Below, one piece after another: positions 16,403 through 49,669 of a DNA stretch of 64,000 bases. Every line of letters starts with the position of its first letter. Positions within the stretch are counted from its first letter, which is position 1. Location of the stretch: IMG/VR virus record IMGVR_UViG_3300028628_000004. One strand, given 5' to 3'. Origin of the DNA: a virus (lineage: Duplodnaviria > Caudoviricetes). A program made the translations under genes and the position numbers. The notes below the pieces were generated by a model. It did not search any database, was not told the DNA's origin, and worked only from the letters and a program-made list of their open reading frames with translations.

Positions 16403-16410
16403 TATAAATA
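16403..16410 (+). promoter_or_regulatory. T4-type late promoter TATAAATA
   Basis: Upstream of HNH gene. Confidence 0.7.
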
Positions 16411-19989: not shown

Positions 19990-21183
19990 ATGCCTACGAA
20001 AGAAACTTTAGTCAAGATACTGACGGCACTTGAGAGTGCTGGCGGGGAAGTCTTTGTGGTCGGTGGACCCGTGCGTGACCGCATGCTGTCCAAGACGCCA
20101 AAAGACATAGACTTTCTGGTTCGTAAGCTGACGCTGGAGCAGATAGCCGTTGCTATTCGTGTCCTGGGTTCGGCTGATGAAGTGGGCAAGTCGTTCGGCG
20201 TTGTCAAGGGAACGATAGAAGGCGAAGTGTTCGACTTTGCCATACCCCGGATCCGGGAAGTGAAGACGGGTGTCTCACACACCGACTTTGCGGTTGAAAC
20301 GGACCCTATGGTTTCTGTCGAGAGTGACTTGGGTCGTAGAGACTTCACGATCAACGCCATGGCTATTCCGCTGCGGAGTTTCTTGGCTGATAGCTCTGAG
20401 GGGCTTATAGACCCGTTTGGTGGCATGGAAGACCTGAAGGCTGGCGTCCTGCGAGCCGTTGGTGATCCTGTGGCTCGCTTTACGGAAGACCCTCTGCGTA
20501 TGCTGCGTGGGCTGCAATTTTCTGTGAGAATGGGCTTCAAGATGGAGGTAGAGACGGCAGTAGCTATTCTCAACATGCGAGACAGCCTGAAGACGGTTTC
20601 AGGTGAGCGTATTCTGGAGGAATTCAAAAAGGCTTGGCTCAAGGGTCCAGCCGATTCGGGTGACTTTGCGGCGGTCCTGAAGCTGTCGGGTGTCGGTGAG
20701 ACGCTGTTTGGTAGAGACTTCAAGCCACTGAAAGTGAGTCTCGGGGGGTTGCATGATGAAAGCCGTGTGTTGGGTATGCTGATAGCCTTTTTCCTGCGAG
20801 GCGGCAATGTTGCTGCTATGAAGCCGGAAGCGGTTCATGTCAAGTTTCTGGAAGTAGCCCGTAAAGCTGCTTTCAGTTTCGAGATGCCCCATACCTTCAT
20901 AGGCAATGTAAAGCCTCTGCTGCCAGTTCTGCTGGCAGTTGCCCGTGAGATAGAAGGAGACGGCTTCCGTGGATTCGCGGCTAAAGTCGAGAAGATGATA
21001 GCCACGCCACTGACTGCAAAAGAACTTGATGTCACTGGAGAGGAACTTATAGTTGCTCTGGATATCAAGTCGCCCAAGGATGGCAAGCGGATAGGAGAGG
21101 CTCAGAGGGCGATGCTGTCGGCTCTGTGGGCTGGAACGCTGGTCAATGAAAAAGAAAAGTTACTGGCGAGCATCCGTCAGTAA
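19990..21183 (+). CDS. cca: class II tRNA nucleotidyltransferase (CCA-adding/poly(A) polymerase family)
   Basis: VGGPVRD, DIDF, DLGRRDFTINAMA, DPFGG..DL, RF.EDPLRMLR, VSGERI. Confidence 0.92.
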   Translation: MPTKETLVKILTALESAGGEVFVVGGPVRDRMLSKTPKDIDFLVRKLTLEQIAVAIRVLGSADEVGKSFGVVKGTIEGEVFDFAIPRIREVKTGVSHTDFAVETDPMVSVESDLGRRDFTINAMAIPLRSFLADSSEGLIDPFGGMEDLKAGVLRAVGDPVARFTEDPLRMLRGLQFSVRMGFKMEVETAVAILNMRDSLKTVSGERILEEFKKAWLKGPADSGDFAAVLKLSGVGETLFGRDFKPLKVSLGGLHDESRVLGMLIAFFLRGGNVAAMKPEAVHVKFLEVARKAAFSFEMPHTFIGNVKPLLPVLLAVAREIEGDGFRGFAAKVEKMIATPLTAKELDVTGEELIVALDIKSPKDGKRIGEAQRAMLSALWAGTLVNEKEKLLASIRQ

Positions 21184-24346: not shown

Positions 24347-25435
24347 ATGGCTTTCTTTGGAGTAACTATTGAAGAGATAGGTTCAATCGAACCTATCGTC
24401 GGCGCTGATCGAATCGTCAAGGCTACCTTGAAGAATGTTGCGTTCTCGTTCGTTGTTGGCAAGGGTCTGTTTGAAGTCGGGCAGAAGTGCCTTTACTTCC
24501 CCATCGACTCTGTTCTTCCCGTTCCTGTTCAGGAGCGTCTTGGAGTTGTTGGCAAGCTGGCTGGAAACGCCAAGGACCGTATCAAAACTGTTAAGCTCAA
24601 GGGAGTTCTCAGTCAGGGACTTGTCGGTAACATCACGCTTATTGATGATCCTGATTTTTACGCCCACTGGAAGCTGGAGAAGGGGCTGGAAGTTCCTACC
24701 CCCGAAATGATCACGCAGTTCCTTGGAGTTACCAAGTACGAGCCTCCTGTCATTCCCGACAAGGCTGGTAACTTGAAGCAGCTTCCATGTGACCTTAGTG
24801 TTTACGACATTGAGGGTTGCGAGCGTTTCTATGTTCCTCTTGAGAAGCTCATGGACCAGAAGGTTTGGGTTCTTGAGAAGGTCGAGGGAAGCAACGGGTC
24901 AGTTTCTTTCAACCCTGCTACTGGTGAGACTTTCGTCAACCAGCGCAGACACACCATTGAAGAGATTGATGGACATGAGCATGCTTGGTGGGCTATTGCT
25001 CGCAAGCAGAAGTTCATTGACTTTGTAAAGACCATCGGCAGTCTCTACGGCGAAGTCGCTACCCTCTACTTCGAGGTAGCTGGTCCCGCAATCCAGGGCA
25101 ACATCTATAAGCTGACCGAACCTACTGGTTTCATCTTCGACCTGAAGATTGGAAGCAAGTTTGTCAGCAAGGGTGTCATGTTCTCTCTTCTTGACCAAAA
25201 CTTCGGGGCTGGTAAATACAGTCATGCTCCTATCCTTTCACACGGCAAGACGCTTCGTGAGTGGCTCGACGGCAAGACCATCGTTCAGGCTTCTAACGGA
25301 GAGTCAAAGATTTACAAGACTCTCCGAGAGGGTATTGTTATTTCTCCCGAGATTGAACAAGAGGACGAGACTCTTGGTGGGAGACTTATCTTGAAGCAGC
25401 GTGACCCGATCTACCTCGCCGGAACCGACAACTAA
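24347..25435 (+). CDS. RNA ligase, DRB0094/Rnl5 family
   Basis: PI.GADRI, YF.IDS.LP, KLKGVLSQGL, EKVEGSN, E..GP.IQGN.Y, REGIV, LK. Confidence 0.9.
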   Translation: MAFFGVTIEEIGSIEPIVGADRIVKATLKNVAFSFVVGKGLFEVGQKCLYFPIDSVLPVPVQERLGVVGKLAGNAKDRIKTVKLKGVLSQGLVGNITLIDDPDFYAHWKLEKGLEVPTPEMITQFLGVTKYEPPVIPDKAGNLKQLPCDLSVYDIEGCERFYVPLEKLMDQKVWVLEKVEGSNGSVSFNPATGETFVNQRRHTIEEIDGHEHAWWAIARKQKFIDFVKTIGSLYGEVATLYFEVAGPAIQGNIYKLTEPTGFIFDLKIGSKFVSKGVMFSLLDQNFGAGKYSHAPILSHGKTLREWLDGKTIVQASNGESKIYKTLREGIVISPEIEQEDETLGGRLILKQRDPIYLAGTDN

Positions 25436-26564: not shown

Positions 26565-26756
26565 ATGAGGGATTTCGAATCTCTGCGTAAGTTAGAAAAA
26601 TTACTTCACTCTATGGACTTGCCTTGGAATAGGAAGAAAGACCTGAACCCAATTAAATTCCGATGGCTCGAAAAAAATCTTGGTGAGAGAAACTCTAGCC
26701 ATAAAGATTATCCAGAAGCCATGGGGCTTATACAGAAACTTATAGCCGATGGCTGA
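26565..26756 (+). CDS. hypothetical protein
   Basis: AGGA RBS. Confidence 0.6.
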   Translation: MRDFESLRKLEKLLHSMDLPWNRKKDLNPIKFRWLEKNLGERNSSHKDYPEAMGLIQKLIADG

Positions 26757-27408
26757 CTTACCTCCACAACCTGCTTCCGATCAGCCTATGTATTCTATTG
26801 ACCCAAATGGCAATAGAACTATGTCAATTAATGGTAATGTGTATCAAGTTTTAGATATTGGATATATTAATGGAAATCCTTATACTGCATGTATAGTATT
26901 ATCCGATGACTCCGTTGTTATTAGTCCAATTGCTGATGCATTTCCGGTGTGTTCAGCGTGCTGGCATCCAGAGGGAATTATCACTGTACCAGATTGGATA
27001 ACATGTGCTGTACCTGTCGGTGGACACGGTTCACTTATCAAGTTTAAAAAGCCATGGGAATGTCACTGTTTAAAATTAATGGGATATCAATCAATAGAAA
27101 CATCTACTATTGATGAAACTTTAACTTTCTCACCAATGTGCGGTGCCCCGAAAGTACCACCCCCTTCAGCGGCACTTGCTTCAGCAGCGGTTGGCGCTGG
27201 GTTGCTCGCAATAGGGGCTGTTGCATTTTTCAATGCTCTCAACAATGGTATATCAAACTACAGTGGGGACATTCCAAACGGGTTTGATTCGAATATCAAT
27301 ATTGGAGAGGAAACTGGGAATATAATCCCATCTAAGTCATGTCCAGAAGATCCCGCTGGTGGTGTATCACACGCTAGTTCATCTGTTAAGAATACAGATT
27401 GTAAATAA
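26749..27408 (+). CDS. Cys-containing protein with hydrophobic segment
   Basis: Long ORF, overlap coupling. Confidence 0.65.
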   Translation: MADLPPQPASDQPMYSIDPNGNRTMSINGNVYQVLDIGYINGNPYTACIVLSDDSVVISPIADAFPVCSACWHPEGIITVPDWITCAVPVGGHGSLIKFKKPWECHCLKLMGYQSIETSTIDETLTFSPMCGAPKVPPPSAALASAAVGAGLLAIGAVAFFNALNNGISNYSGDIPNGFDSNINIGEETGNIIPSKSCPEDPAGGVSHASSSVKNTDCK

Positions 27409-27453: not shown

Positions 27454-27819
27454 ATGGCGAAGATTTACGAGTGGACCTACAAGGGCGATAGTGGCAAGAT
27501 CGTTGCCGCCAATACCAAGGAAGCTAAGCGAGAGATTGCCAAGAAGTTCGGCAATGCTATAAAGATTCCAAAGGGGACCATTGTCAAGAAGATTGGTCTT
27601 GCCAAGGCAGAAAAGAAAATCAAGGAAGTCGAGCCATCCAAGCCGCTTCCACAGACCTCCATGGTTACTTCTATTGACGAGTCATATGTTTTGACTAAGG
27701 AGCAGACTTTTACTGGCTGCACTCTCATGGTCAATGGACAGGTCTTTGGTGTTGGCGATGAAACCGAATTCATCGTCCCCAAGGGTTGCCGTATTTCCAA
27801 TGTCAAGCCCATCCGATAA
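27454..27819 (+). CDS. basic hypothetical protein
   Basis: AAGGA RBS; codon bias. Confidence 0.7.
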   Translation: MAKIYEWTYKGDSGKIVAANTKEAKREIAKKFGNAIKIPKGTIVKKIGLAKAEKKIKEVEPSKPLPQTSMVTSIDESYVLTKEQTFTGCTLMVNGQVFGVGDETEFIVPKGCRISNVKPIR

Positions 27820-27893
27820 GATGGCTCTTGACTTATTGAATAAACTCACCATAATAAAGTCTCAGGGACATAACCTCAACAAAGGAGAATACA

Positions 27894-28373
27894 ATGCCCC
27901 GTGTTGCAAAGAATAAGGACGAATCCGCTGTCCAGAATGTAGCGGAACCCAAGAAGCGCATCAATAAGAAGATGGCTCCAGTAGAGTCAGCTAATGTTGA
28001 TACTCCAGTAGAGCCACCGAAGAAGGGATATGTCTTTTATTCGGTATATAGTCGCTCTCGCGGCTGGCTTACCGAATCTCTTGATCCCGACAAGGCATGC
28101 GAAGCACTTGATGAGTGCTACTTCGATTGGCTCCGAAAGGTCAACTACGAAGAAAAGAGGATTGTATTTGATTATTACATCCTCAAGCGCGACACTTCGG
28201 TGAATTCCGCCAGCAGCGAGCCATACAGCTACTACCCCGGATCTTATACCGAGCGCAAGCGCGAAGAAGCCCTTCGTGCCAAGTATGGCGACCGCTATCG
28301 TGAAGACGAGGGCGAGGATTACGACTACTCGCAGTATGCCGAGGAATTCGAGAAGTCAAAGTCGAAGCGATAA
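27894..28373 (+). CDS. hypothetical protein
   Basis: Promoter at 27828, AAGGAG RBS. Confidence 0.7.
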   Translation: MPRVAKNKDESAVQNVAEPKKRINKKMAPVESANVDTPVEPPKKGYVFYSVYSRSRGWLTESLDPDKACEALDECYFDWLRKVNYEEKRIVFDYYILKRDTSVNSASSEPYSYYPGSYTERKREEALRAKYGDRYREDEGEDYDYSQYAEEFEKSKSKR

Positions 28374-28386
28374 ATACAAGTGTTAT

Positions 28387-28496
28387 GGGCACGTAGCTTA
28401 AAGTAAAGCGGAAGTAACTTTGAATGCTCTTTATGACTAAAGCTCTTTCTAATCAAAGTTGTTTCGTTGCAGGATCATACCCTGCCGTGTCCACCA
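28387..28496 (+). ncRNA. 110-nt tRNA-like RNA with Ala identity (G3.U70, A73, encoded CCA) and extended anticodon-replacing stem-loop
   Basis: Acceptor GGGCACG/CGTGTCC-A-CCA; D stem GCTT/AAGC; 13-bp stem GAAGTAACTTTGA/TCAAAGTTGTTTC with 29-nt loop; T stem GCAGG/CCTGC. Confidence 0.8.
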
Positions 28497-28511
28497 CTCT
28501 TAAAGTGTTAT

Positions 28512-28871
28512 ATGTCAGATGATTACACCAAGTCTCTCGAAGAGACTATCGCAAAGCAAGAAGGAGTTATTGAAGACTTCCTCAAGGATAGAGAGAACAT
28601 AACAAAGATGCTTGGGAAAATAATACAAGGAACCCATGATATTTGTAATGATATTGAGTTACTAGCAAATCCCAAGAATCCTTCTGGAAGTGATAAGCAG
28701 CTTGATACAATACGAAGTGTTATAAAAAATAAACTTATCCAAGAACTTAAAAGTTATGCTAATTCGCTTGCTACTGTAAGTAGCTACTCAAATTCAGATC
28801 CTTCTGAATATAGAGTATCTGGAAAACACTGGGCAATTCCAGTCATAAGACCAGTCAAAGATCACTATTGA
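28512..28871 (+). CDS. hypothetical protein with N-terminal zipper motif
   Basis: MSDDYTKSLEETIAKQE. Confidence 0.65.
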   Translation: MSDDYTKSLEETIAKQEGVIEDFLKDRENITKMLGKIIQGTHDICNDIELLANPKNPSGSDKQLDTIRSVIKNKLIQELKSYANSLATVSSYSNSDPSEYRVSGKHWAIPVIRPVKDHY

Positions 28872-28914
28872 CTTCTGGTTATATTCCATATAATGTGGAT
28901 TAAGGAAACACACC

Positions 28915-29253
28915 ATGGCACAGCAAGACTTCGGCACCTATACCATTGAAGATACAAGCGTTGAGACGAAGAACGCAAAGAACTGGAATGTCATCATCCA
29001 TGACTCCGACCAGCATTCGTTCGTCTATGTCACTAAGCTTCTTCGTGAAGTGTTTGCGAAAAACGAGCAAGATGCCGAGCTTCTGACGCTTGAAGTTCAT
29101 CAGATGGGCTTGGCGATTGTCAAGACTTGCTCCAAGGAGCGAGCGGAGCTTTACAAGGAGCAGGTAACTGCTTATGGTGCCGATGAAGTTATGTTCTATA
29201 TGGGAAAGACTTCAAATGGACCCATCGGTTGCTCAATAGAGCCTGCGGAGTAA
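28915..29253 (+). CDS. clpS: ATP-dependent Clp protease adaptor ClpS
   Basis: WNVIIHDSDQHSFVYV..LL.EVF...A..L.LEVH..G.AIV...ERAE. Confidence 0.85.
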   Translation: MAQQDFGTYTIEDTSVETKNAKNWNVIIHDSDQHSFVYVTKLLREVFAKNEQDAELLTLEVHQMGLAIVKTCSKERAELYKEQVTAYGADEVMFYMGKTSNGPIGCSIEPAE

Positions 29254-29255
29254 GC

Positions 29256-29900
29256 ATGACTATCTTTTTCACCAGTGATACGCACTTTCACCATGTTTCA
29301 ATACTCAAGTATTGCAACCGTCCATTTGCCTCCGTAGAGGAAATGAACGAGAAGCTGATTGCCAACTGGAACTCTGTAGTTACGAGCAAGGATGTCGTCT
29401 ATCACATGGGCGACTTCTCTTGGGGCAATGCTGAGAAGATCCGGAGCGTCTTTGATCGTCTGAACGGTCAGAAGCATCTGGTTCTTGGCAACCACGATGA
29501 TATTGATTCTCACAAGAAACTAAAGTGGAACTGGGTCAAGACTGAATATACTCTGAAGGTCAACGATCTTCGTTATGTTCTGTATCACTATCCCCAGCGT
29601 TCATGGAACTATTCGGTCCACGGGGCAAGGCATCTGTTTGGTCATTGTCACGGAACGGCTAAGCCTTGGGGTTATTCGTTCGATGTGGGCACTGACTGTT
29701 GGGATTTTACTCCCGTGTCTATTGAAGTGGTTGAAGCGACCATTGCCAAGATGCAGAGGATGAACCCCGAGTATGATGTCGCTTTCATGCCAAAGGGAGT
29801 CATCTGGAACGGAAAAACTCACGACTACTCCTATCGGGACTTTTTTGTGGGCGATGGGTCGCTTGACAAGGTAGATCCAGACGCTATCAGGGGCGAATAA
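29256..29900 (+). CDS. calcineurin-like metallophosphoesterase
   Basis: FTSDTHF.H, HMGD, GNHD, HYP, GHCH. Confidence 0.9.
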   Translation: MTIFFTSDTHFHHVSILKYCNRPFASVEEMNEKLIANWNSVVTSKDVVYHMGDFSWGNAEKIRSVFDRLNGQKHLVLGNHDDIDSHKKLKWNWVKTEYTLKVNDLRYVLYHYPQRSWNYSVHGARHLFGHCHGTAKPWGYSFDVGTDCWDFTPVSIEVVEATIAKMQRMNPEYDVAFMPKGVIWNGKTHDYSYRDFFVGDGSLDKVDPDAIRGE

Positions 29901-29950: not shown

Positions 29951-30568
29951 ATGAAATCGTATCCAAGTATTGAAGGCTCTTCTAAAGCCCCGAATGACCA
30001 ATGCATCGCGTTCTACAAGTACGACGGTTCTAATCTTCGTTTCGAGTGGATTAAGAAACGAGGGTGGCACTTGTTCGGCACCCGCAAGCGTCTATTTGAC
30101 GAGTCGGACCCTGACTTTGGTCCCGCAATCAAGATGTTTCGTGATACTTTGGCAAGCGACCTTGAAGCTATTTTCAAGAAAGAATATCGCGATTCGCAAG
30201 AGGTTGTGGTGTTCTGTGAATATTTTGGCGACCAATCTTTCGCGGGTCAACATAAACCCGACGATGCTACAAAGCGTCTTGTATTGATTGATGTAGATAT
30301 TCATAAGAAGGGATTTGTTAGTCCACGAGAATTCGTCAAAGTATTCTGTAAGGCTCTTGGCAACAGAGCCGCCGAAGTCATATATGAAGGAAACCTTAAT
30401 GCGTCCTTTATTGCCGATGTTAGATCCGGTAAGTATCCAGTTGTAGAGGGCGTTGTCTGTAAAGGTGGATCTGGACATAAGATATGGAGAGCAAAAATTA
30501 AGACTGATGCCTATTTAAAGAGACTCAAGGAAGTATATGCGGATAGTTGGGCAAGCTACTGGGAATAA
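29951..30568 (+). CDS. stand-alone ATP-dependent RNA ligase (nucleotidyltransferase domain)
   Basis: YPSI, KYDGSN (motif I), EYFG, IDV, EGVVCK, KIK. Confidence 0.8.
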   Translation: MKSYPSIEGSSKAPNDQCIAFYKYDGSNLRFEWIKKRGWHLFGTRKRLFDESDPDFGPAIKMFRDTLASDLEAIFKKEYRDSQEVVVFCEYFGDQSFAGQHKPDDATKRLVLIDVDIHKKGFVSPREFVKVFCKALGNRAAEVIYEGNLNASFIADVRSGKYPVVEGVVCKGGSGHKIWRAKIKTDAYLKRLKEVYADSWASYWE

Positions 30569-30606: not shown

Positions 30607-31365
30607 ATGAAGATCCAAGTTCTCTCTGACCTCCATCTGGAGCATCAGCCATACACCCTCAAGCTCCATAACCACGCCGATGTATTGGTGTTGGCTGGGG
30701 ACATCTGCCCACCCAAGCTCATTGGTCGGATGAAGAACATCTTGGGTCGGATCACCCGGAAGGTTCCGGTATTGTATATCACTGGTAATCACGAGTATTA
30801 CGGCAGTGAGTTCCATACCGTCAATGACTTCTGGGAGGACTTCGCCAAGCAGACTCCAAACTTCCACTTTCTCAACAACAAAAACTTTGTTTATGGTGGA
30901 TATCAGTTTGTTGGGTCAACTCTGTGGAGTAACTTCGACCTCGTTCGGTCTTCGGGTCTTCCGCTTGACATCTTTATGTCGCGGCTCCCGTTTGCCATCA
31001 ACGACTTCTTCTCCATCAAGCACGGTGATGGGTGGTTTACTCCGCAACACTGCCTTGACCTCAACTTGGCTGCACGGAAGTTCATCAAGGAATCGGTGGA
31101 AAGCTTCGATGGGAAGTCGGTAGTCATTAGCCACTTCTGCCCACACCCGAAGTCGATCCATGAGAAGTTCATGGGAAGTAAGCTTAACTGCTACTTTACC
31201 TGCGACTGCTCAGAAATCTTCCAGCCAAAGATTCCTTTGTGGATTTTCGGGCACACGCATGAACCAACTGAGTTTACCCTTGGTGACACCCGGTTTGTCT
31301 GCAATCCACGGGGATATCCCCACGAGAAGAGCAACTATGACGGAAAGAAGATCATTGAGATATAA
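30607..31365 (+). CDS. calcineurin-like metallophosphoesterase
   Basis: SDLHLE, LAGDI, GNHEYY, GHTH, NPRGY; leaderless. Confidence 0.9.
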   Translation: MKIQVLSDLHLEHQPYTLKLHNHADVLVLAGDICPPKLIGRMKNILGRITRKVPVLYITGNHEYYGSEFHTVNDFWEDFAKQTPNFHFLNNKNFVYGGYQFVGSTLWSNFDLVRSSGLPLDIFMSRLPFAINDFFSIKHGDGWFTPQHCLDLNLAARKFIKESVESFDGKSVVISHFCPHPKSIHEKFMGSKLNCYFTCDCSEIFQPKIPLWIFGHTHEPTEFTLGDTRFVCNPRGYPHEKSNYDGKKIIEI

Positions 31366-32630: not shown

Positions 32631-32954
32631 ATGAAACAAAAAGTTATAGTAGAGTGTGATCTACCTAAAGATTACTGTCTTAATAATGGATTTGCAACTA
32701 CCCAGTTACCAGTTCTTCGTATGGGTGACTTTTATGCAATAACCAAAGAAAAGAAGCTCGTAAAAAAAATATTACAGGAAAATGGATTTTCTTTCGATGA
32801 TATTCCGTCATCAGAATCAGTTGAATTTGACATAAAGCAAAACTTTACTACAGAGATGGGTCTTTGGGAGAGTAGATTTCATGTATCAGTCGTAAATGGA
32901 GATGTCAATAACATTTACGAAGTCTCGACCAATTTGATACAAAAAGATTCTTGA
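32631..32954 (+). CDS. hypothetical protein
   Basis: GGAG RBS. Confidence 0.65.
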   Translation: MKQKVIVECDLPKDYCLNNGFATTQLPVLRMGDFYAITKEKKLVKKILQENGFSFDDIPSSESVEFDIKQNFTTEMGLWESRFHVSVVNGDVNNIYEVSTNLIQKDS

Positions 32955-32983
32955 CTTCTCTGGCACATCTATATGATGTAACC

Positions 32984-34189
32984 ATGTCACTACACGATTA
33001 CCTTTCTAAGTACTTCTCTTCTGGCTCCGTTGGAGAGTTTGAGGGAGTTTCTGTAAACCTTGTTGACCACTTCTTCGAGAAGTTTGGAGTCAACGTTAAG
33101 AACGAGGGCGACCTCTGGCAGTTTAAGTACGACCAGTTGGCAGCCAAGTTCTCGTTCCCGCTCGTCAAGGAGTGTCGTGGGCATATCTGGCGTTATGATG
33201 GGGCTTGGACTCGCGTATGTACGCCTCCCGACAAGTTCTTCAACCAGCATGAGGGATACTGCCCTATCTTCAACGATGATGAGTTTTCTCAGAAGCTTTC
33301 GGCGCTTTCGGCTATTCGCAAGGAAGACGGAACGGCTATTGCTGTCTGGTACGACTCCGTTCGTTCGGTTTGGCGTGCTTCAACGCTGGGCGCAATCACC
33401 CCCTTCAAGGTTGGTGATTACGAGATTACTTTCGATGCGTTGTTCTGGAAGACGCTGGGAGAAGAGAACAAGAACATCCTTGAGTCGCAGGGCGACAAGA
33501 ATGTTACCTACCTCTTTGAGCTTTGCTGCTTAGAGAACCGTATTGTCACCAAGTACATCACGGATCGTGTGTTCCTCTTGACGGCTCGTAACAACAAGAC
33601 GGGCGTCTATGAGACTCCATCGTGGTGGGATATCTTCAAGGCATACAAGCCTGACTTCTTCCTGCTCGCTGGGGAAGATAACATCAAGACGCTTGATGAC
33701 TTGAAGCGTTGGGTCGATAAGCAGTCGGATGACACGGCTGACGCTGTGTATCGTGAAGGCTTTGTGATTTACGATGGGCTTACCCCTATCGCTAAGTTGA
33801 AGACGGCTCGCTACTTGTCTCTCCACGCTGTTGGTGGAGGCGACATGAAGCACACGAGGAATGTAGTCATTGACTCGTTCTTCGCTGGAACGCTGGATGA
33901 CATTTGGGGCGTCTTGCACCCTCAGATGCAGGAGTTTGCCGAGAAGCTCAAGGATAAGGTCATTAAGTTGACCAACGAGGCGCTTGCGGCTTCCAAGAAC
34001 ATTGATCCTTCGACCATAGCTTCCCAGAAGGACTATGCGTTGTGGGTCAAGGCGAATGTTCCTCCGATGTTCGCTGGATTCTTCTTCCAGAACAAGGAAG
34101 CGGTTCTTGCCAAGAAGGGCATAACCGAGGACTTTACTTGGTGGGTGAAAGCCAACTACAAGAAGTTCGAGGGCGTCTGGAAGGACTGA
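32984..34189 (+). CDS. RNA ligase, T4 Rnl1-like
   Basis: ECRG, DKFFN, KEDGT (motif I), FEL...NRIV..Y, EGFV, KLK...Y; leaderless start. Confidence 0.88.
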   Translation: MSLHDYLSKYFSSGSVGEFEGVSVNLVDHFFEKFGVNVKNEGDLWQFKYDQLAAKFSFPLVKECRGHIWRYDGAWTRVCTPPDKFFNQHEGYCPIFNDDEFSQKLSALSAIRKEDGTAIAVWYDSVRSVWRASTLGAITPFKVGDYEITFDALFWKTLGEENKNILESQGDKNVTYLFELCCLENRIVTKYITDRVFLLTARNNKTGVYETPSWWDIFKAYKPDFFLLAGEDNIKTLDDLKRWVDKQSDDTADAVYREGFVIYDGLTPIAKLKTARYLSLHAVGGGDMKHTRNVVIDSFFAGTLDDIWGVLHPQMQEFAEKLKDKVIKLTNEALAASKNIDPSTIASQKDYALWVKANVPPMFAGFFFQNKEAVLAKKGITEDFTWWVKANYKKFEGVWKD

Positions 34190-43830: not shown

Positions 43831-44922
43831 ATGAGTGTAAGTATAAGCGATTTTCTTAAAGAAATAAAATCTGTTACCAACAATCGTGGGTGTTATCTCT
43901 ACGGCGAGGCGGTGCGGGATATAATAAATAGACAGAAACCAAAGATATTTAATATATTTATTAAATCGTCACCAAGTGAAGATATAGAGATACTAAGAAA
44001 TAGCTTACCAACATATAAAAACATCAAATATACTATTGAACCTAATTTTTGTATACCTGACATATTTACTGTCAACATGTTATATTTGGATGTTAATGAT
44101 ATTCTCAATGGAAGTATTAATATACTTTCCCAGCAGAATGGCTTGAGGGATTTTAATAAATCAAGTATAAAATTTACAAAAGACGCCGCCGAGAATATTA
44201 AACCGGAATATCTTCTTGAAGCTATAAAGCTATCTGTCGTAACCGGGTTTCATTTAGACCCCAAAACCATAACTATTATATTTAACAATAGGGATAAAAT
44301 TAAAGACCTTGATAAAAGAGAAATCTATAGATTCTTGGTTGATTCTGTAAAGTTAAGAGGAACACGTAAAGTCATATCATTTCTTAATACTCTTGGGCTA
44401 TCTAATGCTTTGTTTGGATTTAAGTTGACGGAAACTTCTATTGTTAATCATTTTAATTCATTGGATGTTTTTGAATTTTTTGCTGTGGTATTGTCTGAAG
44501 TCAAGTTTGAAGACCTGAAGCCTATATTGATTGAAAAATGCGGATTTGCTGAAAGAGACACAGAACATGTATTAAAGTTATCGAAGGCTATCAATGAAAT
44601 AGAAGATGAATCAGAAATATCGGCTCGTAAGTTTCTGTCAACAATAGAAAAAAAGAGGATACCTAACGCTGTTAGACTACTTAAGAACTTAGGATACAAG
44701 AACTTAGCTAAGATTATTAAGAAAGAAAAGAGCGCCCCCGTTATATCATCTGAGTTTTGTATTGATGAAAGAATCATTAGGGCAGCTTTTGGTATTGAAA
44801 ACCCGGAAGTAGTTGGTAAGCTGTTGGAGATGGCACATCAGAAGATCATAGATGAGCCTGCGTTCAACAACCAAACTAAGATACTAACCTATCTTAACTA
44901 CGAAAGGAAAAAGTATGTCTAA
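43831..44922 (+). CDS. degenerate CCA/poly(A) polymerase-family protein
   Basis: YLYGEAVRD, FTVN.LY, GLRDF, G..LE.A; catalytic DxD replaced by IFN and RRD absent. Confidence 0.7.
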   Translation: MSVSISDFLKEIKSVTNNRGCYLYGEAVRDIINRQKPKIFNIFIKSSPSEDIEILRNSLPTYKNIKYTIEPNFCIPDIFTVNMLYLDVNDILNGSINILSQQNGLRDFNKSSIKFTKDAAENIKPEYLLEAIKLSVVTGFHLDPKTITIIFNNRDKIKDLDKREIYRFLVDSVKLRGTRKVISFLNTLGLSNALFGFKLTETSIVNHFNSLDVFEFFAVVLSEVKFEDLKPILIEKCGFAERDTEHVLKLSKAINEIEDESEISARKFLSTIEKKRIPNAVRLLKNLGYKNLAKIIKKEKSAPVISSEFCIDERIIRAAFGIENPEVVGKLLEMAHQKIIDEPAFNNQTKILTYLNYERKKYV

Positions 44923-45761: not shown

Positions 45762-45794
45762 AAGAAACCCGCCCTTGATTGGGGCGGGTTTCTT
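45762..45794. terminator. 13-bp hairpin with a -35 box in its loop
   Basis: AAGAAACCCGCCC-TTGATTG-GGGCGGGTTTCTT. Confidence 0.6.
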
Positions 45795-45820
45795 GTTATA
45801 TTGTTTATAACGAGGAAAAT

Positions 45821-48007
45821 ATGGCTAAACATTCTACTCTTAAGCTTATCATGGGTAACTGCGCTGCTTACCAAAGGAAGCGGGACGGGACTCTTGAGGA
45901 AGTTCCCAGTGTCTATGAAGTCTCGAATGGTCGTGGGAAGTTTGAGGGTAATCGCTTCACCACTGCTCGTTTTTGGAAAAATATATCAACTAGGTATTGG
46001 CAGTTTGATGACTTCAAGTTTCACGGTGCTGCTGCTGCTTCATTTTTGGGTAACGCCCACCGTTTTAAGATTTGGTTCAACCCCCTTGAATCTTACAAGT
46101 TGCTCATGCGAGCCGCTTTGGATCTTCATTCTGACAAGGAAACTGAAAGAGAGATGGGTGGGAATCGTGGTAAGAGGGGAAGGAAACCAGTAGCTAAAGA
46201 CGCTACTCTTCCAAGTGAAGAGGACATTCAGAAGGAAAACGAAAAGGCTGAGAAGGAGTGGGAATCTGTTCTTAACAACACCCATCCCAAGTGCGCTAAG
46301 CTTCAGGCAAATTATGGTTGGAGTCCAAATCTCTATAAGGAACTTGTAGAGTCAGAAAAGACTGGTGAGTGGACTGATCGTGGCTGGGAGTTGTGGTGTG
46401 TCTCTCTTGTTAGTTGTGATTTTCTTTTCACTAACGTTACTGCTATCATGATTCACGAAGAGCAGCACATTATTCTTAACCACTTGAACCGCAACGGTAA
46501 GCGCGACCCGTACCAGATGAATCTGGCGCAGGACTATGCTATCAATCAGGAACTTGATTGGTCAGATGAAGTAAAGAAGGTTCTTATTACCTGCGATAAT
46601 GAAACTTTCTTCCAGCGTTTCATTATTTCTTATGTCAAGTACCTTTTGATCACTGAGAACGACCTTCGTCCAGAGATTGAGGACAAGTTTGGACTGAAGT
46701 TGGTCATGGTCCCTGGTGGGGACGAGCGTGCGAATCTGCAAGCCTTTATTGACAAGGCACTTCCGCAGGTCGATAGGATTTTCGAGAAGTACATGCTTCA
46801 GGGCGACAACTGGAACCATACTGATAAGACCGCAGGAAAGTCATCTGACTTCTATTACCGTGTCCTCATGGAGACTATGATCTTCCAGGGTGGATCCGGA
46901 AATGGTAAGGGCAATGGTAAGGGCAATGGTGGCGTCCGTGGTTATGATGGTCACGGGACTTGGGATGAAATTGCTGACGATGACGGTGAAGACGGAGGGG
47001 GTGAAGGTGGCGGTGAAGAAAAAGATGGCGAAGGCAAGGACGGTAAGGGCAAAGGAAAGGGCAAGGATGGCGAAGACGAGGGGGAAGACTCCGATTTCAA
47101 TAAGATTAAGGGAAAGGCACAGGGGGGTAAGATTGATCAGATTCGCAAAGCACCAAAGGGTAGTAAGGCGAAGAATGGTGGCAACTCCAGCGGTGGAGAG
47201 GGGGAAGGCAAGGAAGGCGGCGAAGGATCTGTCGCGAATGGCTCTCATGTCAAGGACCGAGGTAAGGGCGAGGGAGCGGGTGCCGAGCATGCTGGCTTTG
47301 ATGTAACTACCGCATGTTCCCGTCAGGAAATAAAGGCGTCCGTTCGCGATGCTCTTGAGCGTGCTGGTCTTAACCCAGATGATCCAGAAGAGTTGGCTCG
47401 CGCCCTTGGGCGCATCCCTGGAATGGGCAACCTTGGAACCGTCATTAGCGAGTTCTTTAAGGTTCCCACCAAGAACTGGCAGCAGATTCTTGCTAACTAC
47501 TTGGCTACCTCAATCAATGCCAAGGAAAAGGACTACACCATGTCTCGCGAAAACCGTCGCATTGCTGGGGTATTCCCGGGACAACGCCGTGAGCGCGGGC
47601 TTGATGTTATCATTGCGGTTGACACCAGTGGTTCTATCAACTACAACGACTACAATGATTTCGTTGGGCAGATTGAGAAGATTGTCAAGGACTGTGACTT
47701 GACTAAGGTTCGCCTTATTCAGTGCCACCACACGATTTCCTTTGACAAGGAAGTTATCTTGAGCCGCATCAAGCGAATCCCCATCTGCGAAACTGGCGGA
47801 ACGACCATGCGCGTCGTTTACGAGAAGTTGAAGAAAGAGGGCAACCGTAAGTTGCTTATTCTCTTCACTGATGGTTGCATTGATGATTTCCTCCAGAAAG
47901 ACTACCCAGGATTCAAGAGCATTATGTTCTTGAGCAGGGGCAATGGATGCTATGCCAAGCCTCTGATTGACCGTGGCTTCAAGGTCATCAGTCAGGATCA
48001 GGAGTAA
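45821..48007 (+). CDS. DUF2201-type metallopeptidase + VWA protein (MoxR partner)
   Basis: HEEQH...H..R, N.AQD.AIN, Gly-rich linker, VDTSGS, GGT, FTDG. Confidence 0.88.
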   Translation: MAKHSTLKLIMGNCAAYQRKRDGTLEEVPSVYEVSNGRGKFEGNRFTTARFWKNISTRYWQFDDFKFHGAAAASFLGNAHRFKIWFNPLESYKLLMRAALDLHSDKETEREMGGNRGKRGRKPVAKDATLPSEEDIQKENEKAEKEWESVLNNTHPKCAKLQANYGWSPNLYKELVESEKTGEWTDRGWELWCVSLVSCDFLFTNVTAIMIHEEQHIILNHLNRNGKRDPYQMNLAQDYAINQELDWSDEVKKVLITCDNETFFQRFIISYVKYLLITENDLRPEIEDKFGLKLVMVPGGDERANLQAFIDKALPQVDRIFEKYMLQGDNWNHTDKTAGKSSDFYYRVLMETMIFQGGSGNGKGNGKGNGGVRGYDGHGTWDEIADDDGEDGGGEGGGEEKDGEGKDGKGKGKGKDGEDEGEDSDFNKIKGKAQGGKIDQIRKAPKGSKAKNGGNSSGGEGEGKEGGEGSVANGSHVKDRGKGEGAGAEHAGFDVTTACSRQEIKASVRDALERAGLNPDDPEELARALGRIPGMGNLGTVISEFFKVPTKNWQQILANYLATSINAKEKDYTMSRENRRIAGVFPGQRRERGLDVIIAVDTSGSINYNDYNDFVGQIEKIVKDCDLTKVRLIQCHHTISFDKEVILSRIKRIPICETGGTTMRVVYEKLKKEGNRKLLILFTDGCIDDFLQKDYPGFKSIMFLSRGNGCYAKPLIDRGFKVISQDQE

Positions 48008-48496: not shown

Positions 48497-49669
48497 ATGG
48501 CTCAACAGGAAATGTCCCGCAAGCAGATTATCGACTGCATCCACTTTGCGGTTAATCACTCTACCGAAAAGATCAAGTTACCAATTGCTATTTGGGGACT
48601 TCATGGTGTCGGTAAGACCCAAACCGTGGAAGAGGTTGCCAAGCAGATGGGGTATAACCTAGTCATTCTCCACCTTGCTACACAGGACGTTGCCGACTTG
48701 ATTGGTATTCCTCGCGACATGGAAGTGAAGGACGGGGACGGAAATATTGTTGACAAGGTTACGATCTGGTCTTGCCCCGATTGGCTCCACACTGCCCGCA
48801 AGTTGTGGAATGAGAAAAAGATCCCCACTATCTTCTTCCTTGACGAGATGAACCGTGGCAACCGTATGGTTCTGGCTGCCATGTTGCCGTTCCTCATCAA
48901 TGGTGTTCTCCACACCCACAGCATTGGACCCAAGGATGCGGTCATGGCGGCTATGAACCCGCCCACCGAGGACTATGAGGTTAACGATTTGATTGACAAG
49001 GCTCTTCTCAACCGTATGGGACATGTTATCATGCGCCCAACTCATGCCGAGTATGTAGACTACCTCAAGAATACTGGCATGGATAAGATAACTCTGTCGG
49101 TTCTCAAGGAAGATCCTGCGTGGACTAAGATTCCAGAGTTCGATCTTCCGTTTACCATTACCCCCTCCCGTCGTTCTATTGACTATGTTATGAAGGTCAT
49201 TGGTAAGATGGGTCGCGGTTGGGTCAAGGAACATGCTTCTCATATTATTGAGTGCTACCTTGGTCAGAATTTCCGTGATGCGTGGATGGAACACTTCTCA
49301 CGGCAGGGACAGTCCATCACCCTTGACATGCTTATCGACTATGATAACAACAAGGAGGAAATCACGGGTATTCTGAAGACCGAGATTGATGGGGAGAAGA
49401 CGGTTAGACTTGATCTTCTCCAGAAGGCAGTAGCATTGATTAAGCAATATATTGAGGATAAGAAGGATAAAATCACCCTGGAAGATGTTAATTGGATGAA
49501 GAAGTTTTTCAACAACCCGATCATTGACGATGAATACGCTGCGAGCGTATTCGAGGCTAACAAGCATATCAAGGAGAAGATGCTTACCGATGTCAACTTT
49601 AATGTTTCGGTCGGAAACTTCTTGCGAGAAAAAAAGATTTGGAACGACGATGGCATTCCTGTGTGGTGA
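48497..49669 (+). CDS. MoxR-like AAA+ ATPase
   Basis: IWGLHGVGKT, DLIGIP, FFLDEMNR, AAMNP, ALLNR. Confidence 0.9.
   Translation: MAQQEMSRKQIIDCIHFAVNHSTEKIKLPIAIWGLHGVGKTQTVEEVAKQMGYNLVILHLATQDVADLIGIPRDMEVKDGDGNIVDKVTIWSCPDWLHTARKLWNEKKIPTIFFLDEMNRGNRMVLAAMLPFLINGVLHTHSIGPKDAVMAAMNPPTEDYEVNDLIDKALLNRMGHVIMRPTHAEYVDYLKNTGMDKITLSVLKEDPAWTKIPEFDLPFTITPSRRSIDYVMKVIGKMGRGWVKEHASHIIECYLGQNFRDAWMEHFSRQGQSITLDMLIDYDNNKEEITGILKTEIDGEKTVRLDLLQKAVALIKQYIEDKKDKITLEDVNWMKKFFNNPIIDDEYAASVFEANKHIKEKMLTDVNFNVSVGNFLREKKIWNDDGIPVW

Follow-up and report, generated by a model that had tools for sequence, protein, structure and literature searches.

Transfer-messenger RNAs (tmRNAs) without a coding sequence (CDS), which consist of the tRNA-like domain (TLD) only, are known from mycobacteriophage DS6A, from jakobid mitochondria, and from some plastids, and tmRNA is strongly inhibited by a molecule that resembles the DS6A RNA, possibly because SmpB is titrated away (PMC4131195; PMC11915505). 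RNA repair is a second setting with tRNA-like RNAs, as tRNA-like partners of repair platforms (Ro with Y RNA or YrlA) are known in bacteria and some jumbo phages, and jumbo phages with ClpP or ClpS plus RNA-repair sets are known as well (PMC7824862). In the literature that we searched, tRNA-type, alanine-marked, anticodon-less phage RNAs are not described. The nearest published kind is the CDS-less tmRNA, and the only published phage example of the general idea is the TLD-only RNA of DS6A, which is tmRNA-derived. Here, we describe such an RNA from a 64,000-nucleotide stretch of a Caudoviricetes virus (IMG/VR record IMGVR_UViG_3300028628_000004; hereafter the window), which is part of a 101,570-bp phage contig that is estimated to be 44% complete. 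The element is 110 nt long and carries the acceptor end of an alanine tRNA, while a long closed helix stands in place of the anticodon arm. We consider it probable that this RNA is derived from a tRNA-Ala, does not decode, and exerts its function, be it that of a decoy, a ligand, or a carrier of alanine, via the half that accepts alanine. Its parts, with their window coordinates, are listed below.

28387-28496, + strand: anticodon-less alanine tRNA mimic, 110 nt, cloverleaf
28387..28393, + strand: acceptor stem 5' strand GGGCACG, G1 G2 G3 C4 A5 C6 G7 (sequence, fold, Rfam match)
28396..28409, + strand: D arm GCUU-AAAGUA-AAGC, 4-bp stem and 6-nt loop without G18G19 (sequence, fold)
28411..28423, + strand: stalk 5' strand, 13-bp helix replacing the anticodon stem (fold, covariation)
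28424..28452, + strand: apical loop, 29 nt, with two GCUCUUU motifs (sequence)
28453..28465, + strand: stalk 3' strand (fold, covariation)
28469..28485, + strand: T arm GCAGG-AUCAUAC-CCUGC, non-canonical T loop (sequence, fold)
28486..28496, + strand: acceptor stem 3' strand CGUGUCC, A73, and encoded CCA (sequence, Rfam match)

The acceptor stem consists of the pairs G1-C72, G2-C71, G3:U70, C4-G69, A5-U68, C6-G67, and G7-C66 (28387-28393 with 28486-28492) and is followed by A73 at 28493 and by a CCA encoded at 28494-28496. U8-A9 lie between the acceptor stem and the D arm, a single G follows the D arm, the variable region is only 3 nt long (GUU), and the core positions U8/A14 and A15/U48 are present. 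The stalk (28411-28423/28453-28465) is continuous, fully paired, and free of bulges, and the loop at its tip includes an open reading frame (ORF) of GCT CTT TAT GAC TAA (A-L-Y-D-stop, 28426-28440). A sequence-only reading made before our analysis had already given G1-C72, G2-C71, G3:U70, A73, CCA, the 13-bp helix, the 29-nt loop, and its ORF, and direct inspection found them correct to the base. The minimum-free-energy fold is the same cloverleaf at -31.1 kcal/mol (z = -2.99 versus dinucleotide shuffles).

The Rfam tRNA model (RF00005) spans the element end to end (model positions 1-71) with 36.1 bits at a cutoff of 29 (E 3e-6), although this match was not picked up at the filter settings used for the whole window. 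In the alignment to the model, the anticodon arm carries a 48-nt insertion. The tRNA model beats tmRNA in clan competition among the Rfam models, and nothing besides tRNA was matched by Rfam in the element. ARAGORN made no tRNA call here, whether its intron option was off or on. The element lacks the anticodon arm of a decoding tRNA, in which 5 bp close a loop of 7 nt (U33, anticodon, purine 37), and its elbow is without both the D-loop G18G19 and the T-loop U54-psi55-C56...A58. A GG-less D loop alone is a weak sign. The sequence-only reading had noted it, and the arm is present just as it was described, but the same arm occurs in ordinary 73-75-nt phage tRNAs and hence does not by itself indicate mimicry. 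The marks of an alanyl-tRNA synthetase (AlaRS) substrate can all be read from the sequence: G3:U70, A73, G2-C71, and a free CCA end.

Close relatives of the RNA were absent from IMG/VR, from the INPHARED/GenBank phage collection, and from the GTDB genomes, while a looser search with a 5' pattern returned ordinary tRNAs only. Homologs were found through the gene immediately upstream, which encodes a 159-aa protein that served as a syntenic marker in metagenome assemblies, where its homologs are 46-86% identical, and a profile search yielded additional homologs of the protein. The resulting family is small (n = 8) and comes from related large phages. It consists of the mimic in the window and seven further distinct versions, each located in the same gap of a related phage contig:

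L047:727-837, homolog
L038:1265-1377, homolog
L040:924-1031, homolog
L036:4032-4136, homolog
L037:9732-9847, homolog
L045:492-586, - strand, homolog
L072:5457-5533, homolog, the whole RNA being 77 nt

Each of the eight sequences folds unaided to the same cloverleaf. In the five close sequences (alignment A2), 97.9% of the cells of 29 pairs are paired, six pairs have changed on both sides, and one-sided changes are absent; these values were reached by no shuffle, and slid partners gave just 37-48% paired. Across all eight sequences (alignment A6, which was aligned to model R1 and is therefore biased towards the model structure), 98.2% are paired versus 37-49% in the slid controls, 12 pairs have changed on both sides, and only two show a one-sided change, both of which are still standard pairs. 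Homolog covariation had been named as a check in the sequence-only reading, and these 12 pairs show it. Since eight diverged homologs retain the fold via compensatory changes, the mimic is evidently more than a chance structure.

What is retained is quite unevenly distributed over the molecule. G1-C72, G2-C71, G3:U70, C4-G69, A5-U68, G7-C66, and A73 are identical in 8/8 sequences, and the sixth pair (6:67) covaries among C-G, U-A, and A-U. CCA is encoded in 7/8, with L072 reading ACAA. The D stem GCUU/AAGC is invariant in all eight, and the 5' 24 nt are almost invariant across the family. In the T stem, three of the five pairs covary, and the T loops of the distant homologs are near-canonical (UUCAAAC, UUCAACC, and UUUGAGU). 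Eight of the 13 stalk pairs have changed on both sides across the family. The five close relatives have an identical proximal stalk, AAGUAAC/GUUGUUU, which includes a tandem of G:U and U:G, and they also have the two GCUCUUU tip motifs in common; neither feature is present in the distant relatives. Stalk length ranges from 7 to 13 bp and the apical loop from 3 to 45 nt, the tips being 29 nt in the window, 19 nt in L045, a ~45-nt two-hairpin junction in L037, and an AAA triloop in L072, in which the stalk is an 8-bp hairpin. Most versions have stalks far longer than an anticodon arm. The constrained parts are the acceptor, D, and T parts plus the stalk base, and these only. We also considered the GCUCUUU motifs as mimics of the anti-Shine-Dalgarno sequence and rejected this, as the ribosome-binding site (RBS) words of the phage are AAGGA and AGGAG. 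Upstream of the phage start codons, AAAGAGC does not occur and AAAGAG occurs three times versus one expected. A search of the phage contig for antisense targets of the apical loop gave no complementarity longer than 10 nt, and matches of this length occur at chance frequency.

The comparison with known RNAs indicates where the mimic comes from. An ordinary phage tRNA-Ala(UGC) at L058:9930-10002 has the same UAGCUUAAAGUAAAGCG D-arm region, G3:U70, A73, and CCA, and differs in its anticodon arm, which is a normal one with 5 bp and a loop of 7 nt (CUUGCAC); an RNA of this type is a likely kind of ancestor. The TLD-only tmRNA of DS6A resembles the mimic as a small phage RNA with G3:U70, A73, a CCA-type end, a closed helix replacing the anticodon arm, and no tag template, and both are presumably read by AlaRS, both without decoding. 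However, the DS6A RNA (L075:2979-3061, 34.7 bits) and a second TLD-only RNA (L034:7713-7792, 68.2 bits) match the tmRNA model and have a D-analog of the GG.UUCGAC type, no D stem, and a canonical T loop, whereas the mimic matches the tRNA model, forms a genuine D stem of 4 bp, departs from the canonical T loop (AUCAUAC), and has a much longer stalk. With these two RNAs as positive controls, searches of the whole contig with the tmRNA (RF00023), mt-tmRNA (RF02544), and tmRNA_permuted (RF04321) models did not list the mimic at E values up to 10. Because of the tRNA-type D stem and the existence of an ordinary tRNA-Ala(UGC) with the same D arm, we take the mimic to descend from a tRNA and not from a tmRNA, so that a true tRNA, too, has arrived at the end state of a TLD-only tmRNA. 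The L034 RNA itself, which belongs to another phage (IMGVR_UViG_3300025864_000003), is 80 nt long with a ~9-bp P2 stub and a ~12-nt loop, and adds a new case to the DS6A kind. Immediately ahead of it are genes for a metallophosphoesterase (L034:5977-6525) and ClpP (L034:6544-7314). RNAs C and D of phage T4 (species 1 and 2) are stable phage RNAs with tRNA-like pieces (119-139 nt, from the T4 tRNA cluster), and rnaC has a GGGUUCGAAUCCC T arm. Both were ruled out as relatives, as they have no G3:U70/A73/CCA acceptor of the alanine type, no cloverleaf, and no sequence likeness to the mimic.

The mimic is located within a block of RNA-repair and Clp-related genes that we list here together with the tmRNA of the same phage:

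19990..21183, + strand: nucleotidyltransferase of the CCA-adding enzyme / poly(A) polymerase family (Pfam PolyA_pol, E 9e-22, plus PolyA_pol_RNAbd)
24347..25435, + strand: RNA ligase, PHA02142 OB domain plus RNA_ligase domain, at the upstream edge of the conserved block
26749-27408, + strand: Cys-rich 219-aa protein, in every relative of the block
27894..28373, + strand: upstream 159-aa protein, the syntenic marker (homologs 46-86% identical)
28369..28376, + strand: GATAAATA, a variant of TATAAATA, overlapping the stop codon of the 159-aa gene and ending 10 nt before G1
28512..28871, + strand: downstream 119-aa protein, family not assigned, starting 15 nt past CCA
28915..29253, + strand: ClpS-like adaptor gene (Pfam ClpS, E 1.6e-16)
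29229-29900, + strand: metallophosphoesterase (Pfam/PHROG search)
29951-30568, + strand: RNA-ligase-domain protein
30607-31365, + strand: second metallophosphoesterase
32951..34189, + strand: T4 Rnl1-type RNA ligase (Pfam RNA_lig_T4_1, E 1.1e-10; phrog_562, E 2e-39)
G000:C1:92013-92387 (L059:1501-1875), - strand: full-length standard tmRNA within the tRNA array, outside the window (Rfam, 108.7 bits)

The standard genetic code fits the contig. Gene order is kept in the relatives (ligase, 159-aa homolog, gap with the RNA, the 119-aa protein where it occurs, ClpS, phosphoesterase, Rnl1); the first ligase is conserved in L036, L037, L071, and L072, and several small uncharacterized proteins are encoded between it and the 159-aa gene. 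clpS is downstream of the RNA in all relatives whose contig is long enough, while the 119-aa protein is absent from the distant relatives L037 and L072. The 159-aa protein has no match in Pfam or PHROG, and its AlphaFold model (mean pLDDT 69) has a disordered basic N-terminus of 40 residues and a small alpha/beta domain. It was rejected as an SmpB analog, because the model is not SmpB-like, no PDB match reached E<0.05, the best weak rows were ERH-like, and the ESM Atlas gave no usable lead. The 219-aa protein has eight invariant residues (C68, C71, H73, C86, C105, C107, C131, and C198) and was similarly set aside as a candidate transferase, since sequence comparisons with Pfam, PHROG, and PDB, including one with a profile, were all negative and the ESM Atlas gave no usable lead. 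Elsewhere in the window, 43831-44922 encodes a possible second tRNA nucleotidyltransferase (weak PHROG hit), and 45779-48007 and 48497-49669 (+ strand) encode a VWA/DUF2201 protein with a metallopeptidase-like N-terminal domain paired with a MoxR-like AAA_5 ATPase.

TATAAATA, the T4-type late-promoter word, occurs 22 times in the contig where ~9 copies are expected, and nearly every copy is followed by an RBS and ATG at a distance of 10-30 nt (for example at window positions 16403, 22383, 32092, 34211, and 50883). The variant GATAAATA precedes the mimic in 7/8 homologs, and we infer that it acts as a promoter. The RNA would be transcribed from this late-type promoter 10 nt upstream or together with the flanking genes, RNase P would trim it at G1, and 3' trimming would leave the CCA end, which the phage CCA-adding enzyme would supply where it is not encoded. 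The host alanyl-tRNA synthetase would then charge it. AlaRS needs only G3:U70 in the acceptor helix, with A73 and G2-C71 helping. As the enzyme reads just the acceptor-stem marks that the mimic keeps, charging with alanine can reasonably be inferred. The core of the sequence-only reading, an alanine-identity tRNA mimic without decoding ability, holds up. Of its three proposals, that of a decoy is consistent with all of our observations and enters our preferred explanation.

Lacking an anticodon and varying in stalk length, the mimic should be unable to read codons and is unlikely to fit into the 30S decoding site in a conserved manner, which in turn points to action via the acceptor half. The parts that RNase P, the CCA-adding enzyme, AlaRS, and EF-Tu read, namely the acceptor and T arm, are most likely what the mimic has retained, and the additional retention of the D arm and stalk base hints at a further partner in contact with the inside corner of the L-shaped molecule. 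Two modes can be envisaged. In the first, acceptor ends of the tRNA-Ala/tmRNA type would be what some factor recognizes, such as the SmpB/tmRNA machinery, EF-Tu, or an acceptor-stem-specific host defense toxin, and the RNA would serve that factor as decoy or ligand. The inhibition of tmRNA by a DS6A-like molecule is a precedent for this mode, and defense toxins whose choice of tRNAs depends on the acceptor stem are described (bioRxiv 10.1101/2024.07.05.602228). In the second, it would carry alanine for codon-independent transfer. We consider the decoy or ligand mode roughly twice as probable as the donor mode, because no aminoacyl-tRNA transferase was found nearby. The usual explanations of phage tRNA genes, namely codon supplementation and replacement of tRNAs cut by host defenses, both fail for this RNA, which instead points to the aminoacylation, tmRNA, or EF-Tu machinery being used outside of decoding.

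Several observations weigh against our preferred explanation. The acceptor stem is invariant except for pair 6:67, so the comparison does not single out G3:U70. In L071, both flanking genes are present only 18 nt apart without the RNA, which consequently is dispensable at its site. Synteny is not independent evidence either, as all homologs come from one related phage group with the same gene order. Among possible partners, neither SmpB, L/F-transferase, FemAB, NFACT, AlaRS, nor Ro/TROVE was found in the 101-kb contig, which represents ~44% of the genome; such partners may be encoded elsewhere in the genome or by the host. Lastly, an SmpB decoy would be odd in a phage with its own full-length tmRNA, and the mimic lacks the tmRNA D-loop motif.

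The foremost rival explanation would have the tRNA-like structure act in cis on the mRNA of clpS, the phosphoesterases, and the ligases, either as punctuation for RNase P and 3' processing or as a 5' stabilizer, with no free charged RNA being made. No terminator-like site was found in 27800-29400, including the interval between the RNA and the 119-aa gene that starts 15 nt past CCA, and the mimic is always upstream of the clpS operon, both of which would fit such a role. The leader and trailer (28377-28386 with 28497-28511) are also complementary, weakly so in the window (AGUG/CACU), and the pairing covaries in three homologs (AGAUGA/UCAUCU in L038, GAGUA/UACUC in L040, and ACCUAA/UUAGGU in L036). 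However, G3:U70, A73, and CCA, which are present in 8/8, 8/8, and 7/8 sequences, would not be required for a processing signal, and the D arm and stalk, which are irrelevant to RNase P, are conserved or covarying. Moreover, L071 has the same operon without the RNA. A purely cis-acting role is thus unlikely in our view. As further observations on this interval, the trailer half in L036 covers the RBS of the next gene, and a second conserved hairpin is present between the mimic and clpS in distant relatives (L037:9848-9920, and the - strand of L045 just 3' of 492-586). Its outer stem covaries (ACACCCCCA...UGGGGGUGU versus ACACCCUCA...UGAGGGUGU), GUCGCCGCUUGAU in its interior is conserved, and the hairpin is followed by a U-rich run. 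A function as terminator or as regulatory element is possible.

Slightly less probable still is that the RNA resembles Y RNA in being a scaffold or bait for the RNA-repair module of the phage, recruiting or regulating the ligases and phosphoesterases, with an alanine identity left over from its origin. Three RNA ligases and two phosphoesterases do cluster around the mimic, and Ro with Y RNA or YrlA offers a precedent in bacteria and some jumbo phages (PMC7824862) for a tRNA-mimicking non-coding RNA encoded among RNA-repair genes. Against this, the contig has no Ro/TROVE gene that we could find, and no Rfam Y-RNA family matches the mimic. The topology is opposite to that of YrlA as well, since the mimic has a free acceptor end with CCA and a closed stalk. 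In YrlA, the stem bound by Ro is reportedly made up of the 5' and 3' ends, with a closed acceptor-like stem. Furthermore, the apical part of the mimic, which would be the natural site for a bait, is not conserved and is reduced to a bare triloop in L072.

A more specific form of the donor mode, which we regard as improbable, is that the alanine-charged RNA serves codon-independent transfer coupled to the control of proteolysis, e.g., Clp tagging or untagging via the adjacent ClpS. Alanine-acceptor RNAs of two unrelated designs are each found next to a Clp component, namely ClpS for the mimic and ClpP for the TLD-only tmRNA of L034. The adjacency of clpS is constant, though within one phage group, and the L034 pairing with ClpP lends it some added weight. 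If true, the pairing would mark a new way in which phages direct the protein quality control of their hosts.

Two further possibilities are very improbable. One is an intron-containing tRNA, which the sequence-only reading had entertained, whose stalk and loop would be excised and whose halves would be joined by the phage ligases into a decoding tRNA. RNA ligases are adjacent, and array tRNAs of the same phage do have anticodon-loop inserts of 22-115 nt, but the mimic forms a continuous paired helix with no bulge-helix-bulge, and the 48-nt insert is too short for a group I intron, the core of which takes 200 nt or more. The sole cut that leaves a 7-nt loop yields A33, U37, and an 'anticodon' of CUU, CGU, CAU, or CAC, depending on the homolog; these triplets differ because the bases covary as stem pairs. 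In L072, there is only a triloop, with nothing to splice and no room for an anticodon. Splicing is thus largely refuted as far as these sequences can tell. The other is a decayed, functionless tRNA-Ala pseudogene, which had been named earlier as the outcome to expect if there were neither alanylation nor a conserved loop. The loop is indeed not conserved. The missing ARAGORN call, the non-canonical T loop, and the lack of the RNA in L071 would all suit decay. Because of the covariation, we nevertheless consider a pseudogene refuted to the extent that sequence comparison can do so: there are 12 compensatory pairs, just two one-sided changes, and 98% pairing next to a protein only 46-86% identical, together with an almost invariant 5' 24 nt and a promoter-like motif conserved upstream.

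The weakest proposal, also from the sequence-only reading, is a miniature tmRNA that enters stalled ribosomes, donates alanine, and templates the short tag A-L-Y-D; it shares G3:U70, A73, CCA, and a long helix after the D region with tmRNA, and TLD-only tmRNAs exist in phages, but it is scarcely credible and largely refuted by the comparisons, as the loop ORF is not conserved, no tmRNA-family model lists the mimic even though both TLD-only controls are matched, the D region is a tRNA-type stem-loop, the mimic contains neither pseudoknots nor a resume-codon context, no SmpB was found in the 101-kb contig, and the phage already has a complete tmRNA, whose tag we read as ending in YAMAA. The loop reads A-L-Y-D-stop in the window only. 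In L047 it reads A-L-Y-D-E-G-S-F-stop and in L040 A-L-stop, in L038 the frame meets no stop before the loop ends, the corresponding position of L036 lacks GCU, and the 3-nt loop of L072 makes an ORF impossible.

The full-length tmRNA, which was missed by ARAGORN, is part of an array of >20 tRNA genes at the far end of the contig. In its intron mode, ARAGORN places anticodon-loop inserts of 22, 46, and ~115 nt in the array tRNAs at G000:C1:95495-95593, 96552-96669, and 98524-98711 (- strand), outside the window. The 46-nt insert contains a T-arm-like GGTTCAAGTCC and ends in ...GCCAG, whereas the mimic has no such internal CCA. Another array tRNA (G000:C1:97309-97379, - strand; L007:1501-1571; Rfam, 55 bits) also has G3:U70 and A73, together with a 6-nt anticodon loop (AGUUAA) and no encoded CCA, and ARAGORN reports it as tRNA-???, giving its anticodon just two bases. 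This may be another tRNA of the phage that bears the alanine marks and decodes oddly or not at all. A 77-nt tRNA in the array of a different phage (L046:12022-12098, - strand) has its 24-nt 5' half in common with the mimic. It was excluded from the family on account of its G3-C70 pair, its 11-nt anticodon loop, and its position in a tRNA array. This tRNA has a U6-U67 mismatch, ends in CCT, and is called by ARAGORN as Asn GUU with a 4-nt intron, and its contig also has a tmRNA with the tag ANDAFGAVALAA.

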